From Escherichia phage IME178, in the sequence record NC_104190.1: a DNA stretch of 64,000 nucleotides, one strand, 5' to 3'. The notes under the pieces are model-generated. The model searched no databases. It was not told the origin of the DNA and worked only from the letters and a program-made list of their open reading frames with translations. Below, one piece after another: positions 3,567 through 54,963 of this stretch. The position numbers and the translations under genes were made by a program. Position 1 is the stretch's first letter, and each line of letters opens with the position of its first letter.

Positions 3567-3975
3567 GGTAAAGGTTTCCTGTATCTGTTGGTAAGAAGGA
3601 CGATTGAGCTTTAGGTGGATGTTGTTTAGCAATCCAGTTAAGAATCAGTACACGACTAGGAACAATATCAGTGTTGCACCAGAAATCATGAACCCACTGA
3701 CGAGCATCCTCAAACTTACCAAATTTATATGCTTTCTTAAACAGTTCAAACCCAAAACAATCTGGTGTGAAGTCTACTTCACGATACTGAATTACTTTAG
3801 AACCAGTTAGGTCTTGGATCGCTGCATTAATTTCTGTATGCGAGAATTTTGTTTCGTGAAACTTATTAAAGAATCGGTAGTTGAAGCGTCCGTTCGTTTC
3901 GACAAACAACTGGATGAAGAGATCGTTAAATTGGTTATCAAACCAGTAATTCTGTAGTTGTTGTAGTGCTGTCAT
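3514..3975 (-). CDS. hypothetical protein (153 aa)
   Basis: ORF; C-terminus overlaps the next gene in another frame. Confidence 0.45.
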   Translation of the reverse strand: MTALQQLQNYWFDNQFNDLFIQLFVETNGRFNYRFFNKFHETKFSHTEINAAIQDLTGSKVIQYREVDFTPDCFGFELFKKAYKFGKFEDARQWVHDFWCNTDIVPSRVLILNWIAKQHPPKAQSSFLPTDTGNLYHDRKEKSIAGADEGMGE

Positions 3976-4172
3976 TTACGAACTCCGTTAATTGCCACGA
4001 TGATGCCTTCGTACATAAAAGGAAGTAATTCAGAAGTGTAGAAGATATTTTCCGTTATTCCTAGATGTCGAAAAAGTATATTAAATAATGCTGTTAGAAA
4101 TACAATCTGAGGCAGTAATACAAAATACTCAGTTACAATCTTTGGTGCCTGATAAACAAGACGTTTTATCAT
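3972..4172 (-). CDS. small membrane protein (66 aa)
   Basis: Hydrophobic ORF; start overlaps neighbour stop. Confidence 0.4.
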   Translation of the reverse strand: MIKRLVYQAPKIVTEYFVLLPQIVFLTALFNILFRHLGITENIFYTSELLPFMYEGIIVAINGVRK

Positions 4173-4271
4173 TGTTTTTAAGTCTCCTTATTACTTTGGC
4201 CTGCTCCACAATAATAAAAACTGCGAGCACTAATAGTGCTAGTAGCCCCGCAGTAATTGATACTAAATCAA

Positions 4272-4598
4272 TCATGGGAGACGCCATACGTAATTAGCTG
4301 TCTGTAGAGTCTTAGCGGTATCATCATGGTACATTACTACAGACTTTGGTGAATAGCTATCAGCTAGTTCTTTACGAATCATTTCACACTCTTCACCAGT
4401 ATCAATATTTTTAACTATCACTTTCATGTTAAGTGGTGTTAATACAGAAAGTGGTTTCCAAGAGTCCTCAATTTCAATTCCTACCTTTTTCTCTATTAAC
4501 ATGAGAACTTCTAATGTATCATCTGGAATACTAATATTATTATTCACAAACTGTAATATCTCATGTAAGGTATTTAATTCATTAAAATTAAGCTTCAT
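4272..4598 (-). CDS. hypothetical protein (108 aa)
   Basis: ORF in array. Confidence 0.45.
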   Translation of the reverse strand: MKLNFNELNTLHEILQFVNNNISIPDDTLEVLMLIEKKVGIEIEDSWKPLSVLTPLNMKVIVKNIDTGEECEMIRKELADSYSPKSVVMYHDDTAKTLQTANYVWRLP

Positions 4599-4833
4599 CT
4601 TTAAGAATATCCTCTACCATATCACAAGACTGTTGCAATTCATCAGCAATACGTTTAATATCGGTTTTTGTTACTTTACCAATTAGCATTACCAGTAACA
4701 TAGAGAAGATAATGAAAGGTACTGGAATAACAAATAAAGCTACCTTAGCTACATTCTTTGGTGTCCATGTGTGGTACTTAGTAACCAGTACACCAACCAC
4801 AACTAAATAAAATGCGAGAATAAACATCATCAT
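4588..4833 (-). CDS. small membrane protein (81 aa)
   Basis: Two hydrophobic segments. Confidence 0.45.
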   Translation of the reverse strand: MMMFILAFYLVVVGVLVTKYHTWTPKNVAKVALFVIPVPFIIFSMLLVMLIGKVTKTDIKRIADELQQSCDMVEDILKDEA

Positions 4834-7083: not shown

Positions 7084-7691
7084 TAAAGAATCCTCTGTAC
7101 ACCGCAGCTATTATTTTTGTCTGTGGTAAATGTGGTGATTTTGCCAGTTTCATCATTAACTTGCGCAACCGTCAACTGCCCGTTGAAAACACCGCCAGTA
7201 TCAAGGTAAACACGGTTTTTATAAAGAAGTGGGTAAGGTACTCCAGTATGCCCATGAAACACGAAATCTACCCCTTTAACTTCTGGCACTTCTACCATGT
7301 ATTTTTCTTTAAATCCTGAATAACGCTGGAAATACGGGTGTTCCTCACCATTTTTGGACAAGTAGAAGCCTATTTCTTGGATTACATCTCGATCCCATAA
7401 ATATGGTTCAATATGGTACCCAGGATGGTCATGTGGGTCTTCCTTAGCTGCTTCTACTTGTGCAATAAGATTATCCCATACTGGGGTTTCTACCTCATTA
7501 CCGCATTCTTTGTATGTAAAAGGTACACCACCGTGAACAACACCATACTTCTTACCACGATGTCTAACAGTTAGGAATACTGGCATTTTTTTCAGCCATA
7601 TCTTCGGCGATATTTTTAATGGTGTCTGCATCCAGCTCTTCCATAGCCCATATACCACCGTTATACATCCAATTAGCCCAATCTCCTGCAA
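7083..7691 (-). CDS. Ser/Thr protein phosphatase, C-terminal fragment
   Basis: VVHGGV and FVFHGHT resemble the C-terminal half of lambda-type PPP phosphatases; N-terminal half lies in another frame. Confidence 0.6.
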   Translation of the reverse strand: MQEIGLIGCITVVYGLWKSWMQTPLKISPKIWLKKMPVFLTVRHRGKKYGVVHGGVPFTYKECGNEVETPVWDNLIAQVEAAKEDPHDHPGYHIEPYLWDRDVIQEIGFYLSKNGEEHPYFQRYSGFKEKYMVEVPEVKGVDFVFHGHTGVPYPLLYKNRVYLDTGGVFNGQLTVAQVNDETGKITTFTTDKNNSCGVQRIL

Positions 7692-31059: not shown

Positions 31060-31413
31060 TTACTCTACTTCAATGAAGGTAGAGGCGTTAGACTCGGACA
31101 GAACAAAGTCAACATTTGTTGCAAAGTCCTGATATTCCTCGTCATGCTGCTTAATCAGCTTTTCCAGTTCCAGCGGATCAATCAAGAATGGAGTATTCTT
31201 GAGTTCCAGCAGGTTGAGCTGCATTTTAACTTCATCTTCGGAAGTTTTTCTTATCGCGGGTAGCCATGCTATCCTGCAAACGCTCATATTTAGCATCAAA
31301 CTGTGCTTTCTGCGTATTAAACTTAACCGTGGCGGCATGGAACTGCTTACGCATGTTAGCCAGCAGTTGGGCTTTAAGTTCCATAGAACGCTTAGCTTCA
31401 ATTGCTTCCGCAA
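31060..31413 (-). CDS. hypothetical protein, probable C-terminal fragment
   Basis: Overlaps the upstream ORF by 182 nt in another frame; frames meet at an A5 run. Confidence 0.4.
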   Translation of the reverse strand: MRKQLKLSVLWNLKPNCWLTCVSSSMPPRLSLIRRKHSLMLNMSVCRIAWLPAIRKTSEDEVKMQLNLLELKNTPFLIDPLELEKLIKQHDEEYQDFATNVDFVLSESNASTFIEVE

Positions 31414-45486: not shown

Positions 45487-45903
45487 ATGTATTCTCTAAA
45501 GAAGCTAACCCAGTTTTGGTTAACTTTTGGCGTACTCTCCCAGCTAGTGTATAATGAGGCTATTAACTCTTTGAAAATATGGTGTGAGAATAACGAAATC
45601 TCCTTTGCTTTTAAAGATGATATTGATGAGGCCCCCTGTATTGGTTTAATTGTGCAGGTAGAGGATGGCCTTGAAGAGATTGTGGGCTGGAAAGAGTTAG
45701 ACGAAATGGGCTTAGTTTTTGCGTTAAACTATAAGCTGTTTATGCCTGCTAAGCATCGCCTCGTTGTTAACTATAAAAATAGTGAATCTCCTGGTTTTCA
45801 GGTTAATGAACGTTATGGTTGGTCTTACTTACCGGAAGAAGTAAATGAGGGGATTCAGAAACTTCGACGTTTCGGGTATATGATCCCAGGTTTAACTGCT
45901 TAA
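45487..45903 (+). CDS. hypothetical protein, paralog A
   Basis: Shares PCIG, W-x-EL-x-MGL and C-terminal G-Y-x-PGL motifs with the next ORF. Confidence 0.5.
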   Translation: MYSLKKLTQFWLTFGVLSQLVYNEAINSLKIWCENNEISFAFKDDIDEAPCIGLIVQVEDGLEEIVGWKELDEMGLVFALNYKLFMPAKHRLVVNYKNSESPGFQVNERYGWSYLPEEVNEGIQKLRRFGYMIPGLTA

Positions 45904-51861: not shown

Positions 51862-52170
51862 ATGAGCGAACAGGTAAATCAAAACTATGAAGGACACGTT
51901 GATGACCAGTCCATCATACTTTGGGAGAAGGAGGGAGAACAAGTAAGATTAACAGTATCTGAATTTCGTGGGAATCTATACATGGGTATTCGTTACTGGC
52001 TTCTTGATATTAATGATGAATGGTTTCCAACGAAATCTGGCTTCTCTTTTCCTTACACCCTAGAAACAACATCACAGCTTTTCTATGCGTTTACACAGAT
52101 TCTTAGCGAATCTGAGGTTTTACATGAAGTACAGAAACGAGCTGAAGAACTCAAAGCCAAGAATGCCTAG
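51862..52170 (+). CDS. hypothetical protein (102 aa)
   Basis: ORF between two terminators. Confidence 0.5.
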   Translation: MSEQVNQNYEGHVDDQSIILWEKEGEQVRLTVSEFRGNLYMGIRYWLLDINDEWFPTKSGFSFPYTLETTSQLFYAFTQILSESEVLHEVQKRAEELKAKNA

Positions 52171-52186
52171 TTCTTGGCTTTTTCTT
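52156..52186 (+). terminator. rho-independent terminator
   Basis: Hairpin AGCCAAGAA/TTCTTGGCT followed by TTTTTCTTT. Confidence 0.6.
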
Positions 52187-52197
52187 TATAAATGTAT

Positions 52198-52226
52198 TTG
52201 CTTTCAACTCAGTTTTATTATATAAT
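52198..52226 (+). promoter_or_regulatory. T5-type sigma70 promoter
   Basis: TTGCTT (52198-52203), 17 bp, TATAAT (52221-52226), conserved leader. Confidence 0.55.
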
Positions 52227-52257
52227 ATTTATATAAATTGATGAGAGATATAAATAA

Positions 52258-52857
52258 ATGACTAATGTAAAAGACTTTATTAAACGCTGTCAAGAAGCAT
52301 ATTATCAAGGTATGTCTTTAATCTCTGACGAAGAATATGATCGTCTGATTAAAAGATTTCCATTAGAAGAAGAGATCGGGCCTAAGGGTGATATTCCACA
52401 TCTGTATCGTATGTATTCTTTACAGAAAGTTTATTATAATCGTGGAGATAAACCTCCGTTCAACCCGTTAGGTCAGGTAGAAACTGATAAGTTAGATGGT
52501 TGTGCGATTTCTCTGTTATATATTAATGGAGAATTTGTTCAAGCACTAACTCGTGGTAATGGTATTCTAGGGAATGATGTCACAAGCAACGTAAGATTGC
52601 TGAATATCCCTAAAAAGATTTCCCAAAAAGTACCTACTCAAATCACTGGTGAAGTTCTAATTACAAAAGAAGTAGAAAATAAACGTAACTTTGCCTCTGG
52701 TGCTATTAACCTCAAAGATAGCGATGATTTCGTACAACGTATTGGGGAAGGTGGTTTAATCTTCGTTGCATATGGTATCCAGTGTTCTGCTGAATCTGTA
52801 GGTATTACAGAAGCGTACTTAAAAGATATGCTCTGGCTGGAGAATGAGACTTCTTAA
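52258..52857 (+). CDS. lig: NAD-dependent DNA ligase, adenylation-domain piece
   Basis: KxDG adenylation motif ([10 protein letters not shown]) and LigA-like N-terminal Ia/NTase sequence. Confidence 0.8.
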
Positions 52858-52868
52858 CAGTTGTTAAT

Positions 52869-53228
52869 GTGCGTTCCTTCTTTAAGTGGATTCCGACGGA
52901 TGGTAAAGTTGTTCGTATTAATGACAACAACAAATTCTTCCGTGAAGGCTGGACTAATAAATTTCCTCGTGGAGCATTCGCTATTAAAGAAGATGAAGAA
53001 GGCGAGATTACAACTCTTACTAAAGTTGAATGGCAGGTAGGGGCTTCTGGTAAAGTAACTCCAGTTGGTTATTTCGAATCGGTAATTATTGATGATGCTA
53101 CAATTGTTAAGGCGACTCTTAATAACGTTGATTATATTAACTCTCTTGATCTAGAGATCGGTTGCCAGATTCGAGTAATTCGTGCTGGTGGTGTAATCCC
53201 GTGCATAGTAGAGCGAGTATACGATTAA
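52869..53228 (+). CDS. lig: NAD-dependent DNA ligase, NTase motif IV-V plus OB-fold piece
   Basis: Aligns by eye to E. coli LigA DIDGVVIK...PRWAVAFKF...VEFQVGRTG...RAGDVIP; GTG start without RBS. Confidence 0.7.
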
Positions 53229-53280
53229 TATATGTAACCCTTTGCTACCCATCTACCATATAGGAATTATAAAGTGGTTA

Positions 53281-53309
53281 TTGACATTTTCGCCGCTTAG
53301 GTATATACT
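53281..53309 (+). promoter_or_regulatory. consensus sigma70 promoter inside the ligase locus
   Basis: TTGACA (53281-53286), 17 bp, TATACT (53304-53309). Confidence 0.5.
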
Positions 53310-53373
53310 ATTATCATTCAGTTGAGGGATAGAAAGTTATGGCGAGGGTAAGCAAAGTTAGTTAAAATTGTAG

Positions 53374-53402
53374 TTGCTAAATGCTTAAATACTTGCTATA
53401 AT
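53374..53402 (+). promoter_or_regulatory. T5-type sigma70 promoter
   Basis: TTGCTA (53374-53379), 17 bp, TATAAT (53397-53402), conserved leader with AAGGAAG RBS. Confidence 0.55.
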
Positions 53403-53429
53403 ATTTATATAAATTGATAAGGAAGAAAT

Positions 53430-54203
53430 TTGATGAAAATCGAAATTCCAACACAATGTCCCTCTTGTGGTTCTAAGCTAGATCTTGTCAATGGACAATT
53501 ATTCTGTCGTAATAAGTCCAACTGTCCAGCGCAATCAAGTAAGTTAATTGAGAACTTCTGTACAAAAATGAAGTTAAAGGGCTTTGGTCCAAAAACTATT
53601 GAGAAGCTGGAGCTGACGAAGATTTCAGAACTATTTTACCTAACCGAACAAGATTTGGTTAGAGCCGTGGGTAGCAAGGTTGCCGCTAAGTTAATTAGCG
53701 AATTAAATACTAAAGTTCGCGGAGACATTGACTTTGGTTCAGTTCTCGGTTCTTTAGGAATCCCTCTAATAGGAGAGGTTGCAGCAAAGAAATTATCCCA
53801 AAATTGCAACAGCTTCCATGATGTGAAGGCTGACGGCAAGGCTGGAGAAAACTATAAAGCCTGGCTAAATTCCCCACAAGGCAAGGATGTTATCGAACTA
53901 CCGTGGAAATTCTCAACTGGTGCTAAAGCTAAAACCGTCGTTACTGATGATTTAGTTGCCCAGCCAAATGGAATCGCGGTATGTATTACCGGGTCTTTGC
54001 AAGACTTTGCAAATAGAACGGATGCAACAAACTATTTAGAAGGTCTAGGATATACGGTTAAGAAATCCGTTACCAAAGACGTCAAATACCTGATCTGTGA
54101 GGATGAATCAAAACGTTCTTCCTCATCTTATAAGAAAGCCGAAACGAATGGGATAGAAATCCTGTCGATTAAAGAACTATTGGAGAAAAATAATAATGTC
54201 TAA
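53430..54203 (+). CDS. lig: NAD-dependent DNA ligase, Zn-finger/HhH/BRCT piece
   Basis: CPSCGS...CRNKSNCPAQ zinc finger, helix-hairpin-helix region, C-terminal BRCT-like domain. Confidence 0.8.
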   Translation: MMKIEIPTQCPSCGSKLDLVNGQLFCRNKSNCPAQSSKLIENFCTKMKLKGFGPKTIEKLELTKISELFYLTEQDLVRAVGSKVAAKLISELNTKVRGDIDFGSVLGSLGIPLIGEVAAKKLSQNCNSFHDVKADGKAGENYKAWLNSPQGKDVIELPWKFSTGAKAKTVVTDDLVAQPNGIAVCITGSLQDFANRTDATNYLEGLGYTVKKSVTKDVKYLICEDESKRSSSSYKKAETNGIEILSIKELLEKNNNV

Positions 54204-54963
54204 ACTGAACTGGAACGTAGAAGGTGTAACCGAGTCTCTGAAAGCAAAAGCCACTGCTCTGGGTGTTTCTGTAATCTCTCAAGAACAAGTAGCTGCTATC
54301 GCTGCTGAACTGGCTGCTGAAACTGGCAAAGATGTTACTGCTCGCTCTGTTGGCTCTAAACTGCGTAAAGAAGGTTTTGAAGTACAGAAAGCTAACGAAG
54401 TACAGAAATCCCCGTGGACTCCTGAGCAGGAAGCTGAACTGGTTGATTTCCTGAACGCTCATGCTGGTCAGTATACCTATGCTGAAATCGCTGCTGCTGT
54501 AGCTGGTGGTCAGTTCGGTGCTAAGCAGGTACAGGGTAAGATTCTGAGCCTGGAAATGACCGCTTCTGTTAAGCCAACCGAAAAAGCTGCTGCTGTTCGT
54601 TCCTTCACTCCGGATGAAGAAACTGATTTTGTTAATCAGGTTGTTGCTGGTGCTACTATTGAAGCTATCGCTGCTCACTTCGGTCGTAATATCAAGCAGA
54701 TCCGTGGTAAAGCTCTGAGCCTGCTTCGTGAAGGTCGTATCGCTGCTATGCCGGTACAGGAAACTTCAAGTGCTAAAACTCGTGAAGATTTGTTAGAAGG
54801 TCTGGATCTGGTTAACATGACTGTTGCTGAGATCGCTGAGAAAACTGGTAAGTCTGAGCGCGGTGTTAAATCTATGCTGTCTCGTCGTGGTCTGGTTGCT
54901 AAGGACTATGATGGTGCCGCTAAGCGTGCTAAACTGGATGCAAAAGCTGCGGCTGCTGAATAA
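54196..54963 (+). CDS. abundant DNA-binding protein with internal repeats (D5-like)
   Basis: Three HTH-like repeats; codon usage of highly expressed genes (GCT/CTG/GGT-rich); 255 aa. Confidence 0.55.
   Translation: MSKLNWNVEGVTESLKAKATALGVSVISQEQVAAIAAELAAETGKDVTARSVGSKLRKEGFEVQKANEVQKSPWTPEQEAELVDFLNAHAGQYTYAEIAAAVAGGQFGAKQVQGKILSLEMTASVKPTEKAAAVRSFTPDEETDFVNQVVAGATIEAIAAHFGRNIKQIRGKALSLLREGRIAAMPVQETSSAKTREDLLEGLDLVNMTVAEIAEKTGKSERGVKSMLSRRGLVAKDYDGAAKRAKLDAKAAAAE

Follow-up and report, generated by a model that had tools for sequence, protein, structure and literature searches.

The closest described systems are the two-gene ligases of T5-like phages. PMC1684257, which cites Wang et al. 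2005, names the DNA ligase of T5 as split and NAD+-dependent, and the supplement of PMC11879866 places T5 ligA at 65364-66335 (972 nt) and ligB at 66538-67317. Hundreds of genomes of T5-like phages carry the ligA/ligB split in their annotation, the literature has a name for it, and a structure has been solved in a relative. The PDB entries 9HU3 and 9I5I contain a chain A, "DNA ligase (NAD(+))", aligning to residues 4-323 of the LigA discussed below (E = 3e-104), and a chain B, "DNA ligase subunit B", aligning to residues 1-252 of LigB (E = 6e-81); thus the relative was solved as a two-chain enzyme. In the literature that we searched, we found neither a paper describing 9HU3/9I5I nor a biochemical study of T5 LigA/LigB. 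For LigN, another NAD+-dependent ligase, the literature shows that a fragment made of the Ia, NTase and OB domains self-adenylylates, while ligation requires the ZnF/HhH/BRCT part. By analogy, this is the division of labour that would be expected between LigA and LigB.

We analysed a window of 64,000 nucleotides from Escherichia phage IME178 (NC_104190.1) and, within it, the region 52258-54203, which belongs to a Tequintavirus (T5-like) genome. This region matches 513 phage records, nearly all of them from Tequintavirus or other Demerecviridae, with Salmonella, Escherichia and Klebsiella as hosts; none of the 513 is identical to it. The best match is Salmonella phage SA001 (98.3% identity over the locus, 97.7% over 20 kb). 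The order of the genes in the window (T5.115 homologue, ligA, ligB, D5, DnaB-like helicase) is that of T5-type ligase loci, and the features are collected in Table 1. In some T5-like genomes, an extra 64-aa ORF (phrog_8267, function unknown) separates ligA from its promoter and overlaps the start of ligA (coordinates 1657-1851 of the locus fetched for DaisyDussoix); the window lacks it. Several other matching records show length differences of +180 to +270 bp, similar to the case of DaisyDussoix.

Table 1. Positions of the features of the ligase locus in the window and the evidence for each of them
Feature	Positions	Strand	Evidence
Terminator-like hairpin (intrinsic) at the end of the upstream gene (T5.115 homologue)	52153..52181	+	Terminator annotated at the same place in AKFV33
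ligA promoter, TTGCTT-17-TATAAT, T5 early-promoter consensus	52198..52226	+	Read from sequence; AKFV33 promoter annotated at the homologous position (locus 1599-1628)
5' fragment of ligA with domain Ia and, of the NTase motifs, I (K78) and III; 199 aa from ATG, premature TAA from the frameshift	52258..52857	+	ORF list, Pfam, motif positions
ligA 3' fragment, -1 frame: NTase motifs IV (D215) and V (K244), OB domain	52848..53228	+	ORF list, Pfam, motif positions
One-base deletion private to the window (relatives GAGAAC, window GAGAC), codon 198 of ligA	52849..52850	+	Alignment with relatives
First spacer promoter, TTGACA-17-TATACT, 11/12	53281..53309	+	Invariant in 19 T5-like loci; kept in phiR2-01, Eos, DU_PP_V, KEY, Kamaji
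Second spacer promoter (ligB promoter), TTGCTA-17-TATAAT with TG before it, 10/12	53374..53402	+	Annotated in AKFV33; kept across genera, including Vibrio phage phi 3
ligB RBS, AAGGAAG, 7 nt 5' of the ATG	53419..53425	+	Read from sequence
ligB: C4 Zn finger (C9, C12, C25, C31), HhH region, BRCT	53433..54203	+	Pfam; match to PDB 9HU3 chain B (E = 5.7e-81); alignment to E. coli LigA from residue 402
D5 homologue, with an 8-nt overlap at the ligB stop; part of the transcription unit of ligB and a marker of synteny	54196..54963	+	ORF list, AKFV33 annotation

An earlier note on this DNA had described a ligase in three separate ORFs, carrying respectively the KxDG adenylation domain, motifs IV-V with the OB fold, and the Zn finger, HhH and BRCT modules. 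The ORF list, the Pfam matches and the positions of the motifs agree with this description, and the features of an NAD+-dependent ligase of the LigA family, EC 6.5.1.2, are indeed present at the sequence level: a KxDG adenylation domain, an OB fold and C4 Zn finger/HhH/BRCT modules. In the numbering of LigA, motif I is KLDG at 78-81, motif III is GEV at 131, motif IV is DGKVV at 215 and motif V is AIKE at 242. The 5' fragment of ligA is 99.5% identical to residues 1-197 of SA001 LigA, and PF01653 (adenylation) scores 72 bits on it as against 85 bits on intact LigA. The residues of domain Ia that bind NMN and confer NAD+ specificity (YH/YY ... D..YD) may correspond to AYYQG at 14 and SDEEYD at 23, which align with YY...SDAEYD of T. 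filiformis, in a stretch that scores only 3.2 bits with HMMER. The ORF of the 3' fragment, to which PF03120 (ligase OB) gives 77 bits, extends over 52869-53228 (119 aa), and its sole possible start is a GTG at 52869. As had been stated, the first two ORFs lie 11 nt apart in different frames, and the second has no ribosome binding site: we looked for a Shine-Dalgarno-like sequence in the gap (52858-52868) and found none.

The third ORF is listed at 53430-54203, with 257 aa from a TTG; the true start of ligB is most likely the ATG at 53433, which gives 256 aa and is the start annotated in relatives. The BRCT domain (PF00533) scores 32.7 bits in ligB, above the cutoff, and HHH_2 scores 24.8 bits, just under its cutoff of 27. 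The protein aligns to residues 402-530 of 2OWO and to residues 400-653 of 1DGS. The overlap of 8 nt between ligB and the D5 homologue (54196-54203, ATGTCTAA) is the same in relatives and suggests a translational coupling of ligB and D5.

The earlier note had surmised that one of the two breaks is natural, T5-like ligases being made of two subunits. This turned out to be the case: the two-gene layout is found in T5, AKFV33, SA001, DaisyDussoix and distant genera, and more generally in T5 and every genus of Demerecviridae that we sampled. In AKFV33, SA001 and DaisyDussoix, ligA is a single CDS of 972 nt, followed by about 200 bp containing an annotated promoter of T5 consensus and then by a ligB of 771 nt; among the annotated relatives, ligB measures 771-780 nt and lies about 200 bp 3' of ligA. 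We searched 5.8 billion proteins for homologues of LigA and examined the best 120, down to 46% identity. They are stand-alone proteins of 310-337 aa with PF01653 and PF03120, the one exception being a 240-aa partial protein from a contig of 723 bp; those with a name come from phages of Yersinia, Erwinia, Serratia, Pectobacterium and Vibrio. In the six loci that we fetched (from phages of Yersinia, Pectobacterium, Erwinia, Serratia and Vibrio, and from phage Eos), a separate ligB with a BRCT domain (249-263 aa) is always present downstream, the gap being of about 190-200 bp or containing one or two unrelated ORFs. When aligned with the LigA proteins of E. coli and T. filiformis, the phage LigA ends at E. 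coli residue ~390 (the end of the OB fold) and LigB starts at ~402 (the Zn finger); therefore the split falls exactly at a domain boundary. The break between the OB fold and the Zn finger is the natural, conserved and already known ligA/ligB split.

The same note had placed the third ORF behind a spacer of about 200 bp with two promoters and its own ribosome binding site, and these elements are all there (Table 1). The spacer (53229-53432) carries two sigma-70-like promoters. The separate ligB ORF of the window begins at the Zn finger and has a promoter and an RBS of its own. Over 53262-53432, the 19 T5-like loci differ at one base in about 170 nt, whereas the adjacent coding DNA has about 5 variable sites per 80 nt. 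When loci are aligned across genera, the conserved blocks are both pairs of -35 and -10 hexamers with their flanks, and the stretch between the promoters is variable. As the stretch of about 60 nt transcribed from the first promoter varies across genera, a conserved small RNA is unlikely. An intron or insertion signature in 53229-53429 was looked for with Rfam and with the spacer alignments, and there is none: no Rfam match is obtained at E <= 1 in 52000-54400, and the ORF list contains no ORF of 30 aa or more lying wholly inside the spacer. We rejected an intron or structured RNA in the spacer, Rfam being empty and the conservation across genera being promoter-shaped only. Nor did we find, at the split, an intron RNA, a Hint domain or an endonuclease ORF that would be the signature of a group I/II intron, an intein or a homing-endonuclease insertion; a homing endonuclease as the cause of the split was also rejected, for the ORFs inserted at the junction in KEY, Kamaji and Vibrio phage phi 3 give no endonuclease matches. 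The spacer is a tandem-promoter module, with an RBS, for ligB and D5, and not an intron remnant or an insertion scar.

The ORFs just mentioned form a cargo between ligA and the ligB promoter in Vibrio phage phi 3 (3965-4797 of the fetched locus), Erwinia phage KEY (3477-3803) and Serratia phage Kamaji (3576-4190). In phi 3 they encode a DprA-like protein of 190 aa and a protein of 73 aa; PHROGs labels the latter "DNA ligase", and, as its translation contains neither a ligase domain nor a Zn finger, this label is probably wrong. The leaders of ligA and ligB also share an identical block of 22 nt (TATAATATTTATATAAATTGAT), at 52221-52242 and 53397-53418, which covers the -10 hexamer as well as the initially transcribed region and fits the conserved architecture of T5 early promoters.

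The other break, inside ligA, is of a different kind. It had been proposed that one base inserted near 52848 would fuse the first two ORFs, and this is exact: where relatives read GAGAAC, the window reads GAGAC, and restoring one A yields a clean ligA ORF of 972 nt (LigA of 323 aa). As written, the window has no single ORF of about 320 aa with Ia, NTase and OB domains; such an ORF exists only once the base common to all relatives is put back. An alignment with three relatives places the missing base at 52849/50, and this site falls between motifs III and IV. The extra A is present in 25 of the 25 loci that we fetched, and the alignment to the T5 ligase genes shows that T5 itself has it, with ligA as one 972-nt CDS; the references have two ligase ORFs, and three conserved ones were not seen in them. 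An 81-nt query across the deletion matches 176 phage records, none of them at 99% identity or more, and all 30 of the matches listed span 82 bases. Neither IMG/VR nor the metagenome contigs nor the genome contigs contain an exact match to a 24-mer with the deletion, while the intact 25-mer has 20 matches in IMG/VR. Looking for another carrier, we found that a 40-mer of the deleted form has no match in IMG/VR and that an exact look-up of the 199-aa protein is also empty; altogether, four sequence collections yield no exact match to the GAGAC form. The deletion is private to this sequence. The restored ligA differs from that of SA001 at 17 positions, 15 synonymous and 2 non-synonymous, and only 3 substitutions are private to the window. 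There is therefore no decay, and the lesion, if it is real at all, is extremely recent.

The two possibilities can be compared by considering the rest of the window. The translations of 32 CDSs annotated in SA001 and PS3-1 were set against the window and against 14 loci of other relatives. Six of 30 reference CDSs are disrupted in frame in the window, against 1 of 125 in the relatives (Fisher p = 2e-4). Four genes of the window are split between frames (ligA, primase, Ser/Thr phosphatase, holin) and two are truncated by a frameshift (thioredoxin, o-spanin); the 14 loci of the relatives contain 124 intact genes and one split gene, a small hypothetical one. When at least three relatives were required to cover the site, seven private indels were called in the window, at 7586, 9040, 10988, 12930, 45548, 52849 and 57264, and an eighth, +T at 31245, was deduced from the ten best records, each of which is shorter by one base in that stretch. 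The indel at 45548 is a private deletion of 2 nt near the start of an MGA_99 homologue. The private +1 indels in A/T homopolymers stand at 7586, 9040, 10988, 12930, 31245, 57264 and 62337; the genes that they break or truncate are those of Ser/Thr phosphatase, thioredoxin, holin, o-spanin and primase and an orf083-like gene, and one of these indels is intergenic.

The raw count of private indels was rejected as an error test because it is indecisive: the control genomes also carry from 0 to 4 of them per locus. For this reason we used the count of conserved genes broken in frame instead, and in the controls the tested genes are, with one exception, unbroken. Five of the seven private indels add one base to an A/T run of 4-6, a typical signature of sequencing error, and this looks like a systematic homopolymer error. 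It is unlikely that a plaque-forming phage would have frameshifts in holin, spanin, primase and ligase simultaneously, and the set of indels is explained most economically by an error of sequencing or assembly. The ligA indel is atypical of this set, since it is a deletion in a 2-base run while most of the others are insertions in longer homopolymers; it is so outside the dominant type of error. The idea that the other split is a lesion was right in that the deletion inside ligA exists in no relative, and, several other private frameshifts being found in conserved genes, an error in the sequence is therefore more likely than a biological lesion.

The main rival of this reading is a genuine and very recent loss of function, in which the frameshift would leave a 199-aa fragment of LigA without motifs IV and V and the OB fold, and the NAD+-dependent LigA of the host would join Okazaki fragments. 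Many phages do without a ligase of their own. The ligA deletion moreover lies outside long homopolymers, unlike the other private indels, and in CRISPRi-ART experiments in T5 the gene ligA is "Semi-Fit" while ligB and the primase gene are "Not Fit" (PMC11879866 supplement), the knockdown of ligA causing a partial fitness defect only and that of ligB none. Thus a phage truly lacking ligA function could be viable where the host has a LigA of its own. Because of these fitness classes and of the atypical indel, we leave the genuine knockout a minor but appreciable share of the probability. It nevertheless has to account for a deletion unique with respect to all relatives and to four collections, for the lack of relaxed constraint in ligA or ligB (the 15 synonymous and 2 non-synonymous differences), and for the frameshifts in holin, primase, phosphatase, o-spanin and thioredoxin, which are unlikely to be all real in a plaque-forming phage.

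It could also be imagined that the deletion is real and that the ligase works as three polypeptides: the N-half of the NTase domain, its C-half with the OB fold, translated by termination and reinitiation at the GTG at 52869, and LigB. In that case, an enzyme that was split already would have fragmented further by a spontaneous event. The 11 nt between the TAA and the GTG are short enough for translational coupling in principle, and the break stands just before the site of a 4-residue insertion in the 9HU3 homologue, which suggests a surface loop. However, this break divides a single catalytic domain, with motifs I and III on one side and IV and V on the other, seven residues (NFLTVVN) would be lost, and we see no RBS, no compensating changes and no other genome with this arrangement, so we hold a three-fragment enzyme to be very improbable. 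Even less credible, and indeed the least probable of the explanations considered, is a programmed -1 ribosomal frameshift or a transcriptional slippage restoring full-length LigA. It is true that the downstream frame is shifted by -1 with respect to the upstream one and that the two frames overlap at 52848-52857, but GAG ACT TCT TAA contains no slippery heptamer X XXY YYZ and no homopolymer on which RNA polymerase could slip, so that programmed recoding is unsupported. A slippery motif was looked for throughout 52840-52857 and none was found, the two-frame arrangement occurs in 0 of 25 fetched loci and 0 of 176 matching phage records, and all relatives encode LigA in one frame.

We therefore retain as the probable explanation a two-gene (ligA and ligB) NAD+-dependent ligase of T5 type, the additional break in ligA being a missing base and most probably an error of the record. 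LigA is normally a protein of 323 aa consisting of domain Ia, a nucleotidyltransferase domain and an OB fold; it would adenylylate itself at K78 with NAD+ and carry out the chemistry of nick sealing. LigB, predicted at 256 aa with its Zn finger, HhH region and BRCT domain, would supply the DNA-clamping half, which corresponds to the C-terminus of the one-chain bacterial LigA. By homology to the solved two-chain relative, the two proteins of this phage would associate non-covalently into a heterodimer. With its own tandem promoters and RBS, ligB would head a ligB-D5 unit. In this sequence alone, ligA appears cut in two, one A of GAGAAC at codon 198 being absent. The data show directly how the genes are laid out, that this layout is conserved, which domains the genes encode, that the deletion is private and that the window has other frameshifts in excess; we infer that the missing A comes from an error of sequencing or assembly. 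In the window, conserved genes are hit by at least seven private indels that shift the frame, and any annotation of this sequence, such as a three-part ligase, a split primase or a split holin, is suspect. The main use of the finding is hence a quality flag on this sequence, and it has little weight for biology.

Finally, the locus can be set beside the known systems. T5 ligA (T5.116) and ligB (T5.117) stand in the same synteny as in the window (T5.115, ligA, ligB, D5, D6 helicase); the T5 ligA of 972 nt equals that of the window once one base is restored, and the start of ligB is also the same. Measured from flank to flank in both cases, the spacer has 199 bp in T5 and 201 bp in the window, and the two are nearly identical in sequence. 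The differences are the A missing from codon 198 of ligA in the window and the length of ligB, 771 nt in the window and 780 nt in T5. The ligase of 9HU3/9I5I has the same split point and the same domain content as that of the window, but comes from a more distant relative, 53-60% identical (the closest cluster, P0058, is 53% identical to the T5-type LigA). In the LigA of bacteria, which is a single chain (E. coli 2OWO, T. filiformis 1V9P/1DGS), the order of domains and motifs is that of the phage pair; the bacterial enzyme is one polypeptide of about 670 aa whereas the phage has two, and the phage NTase domain is shorter by about 80 residues.
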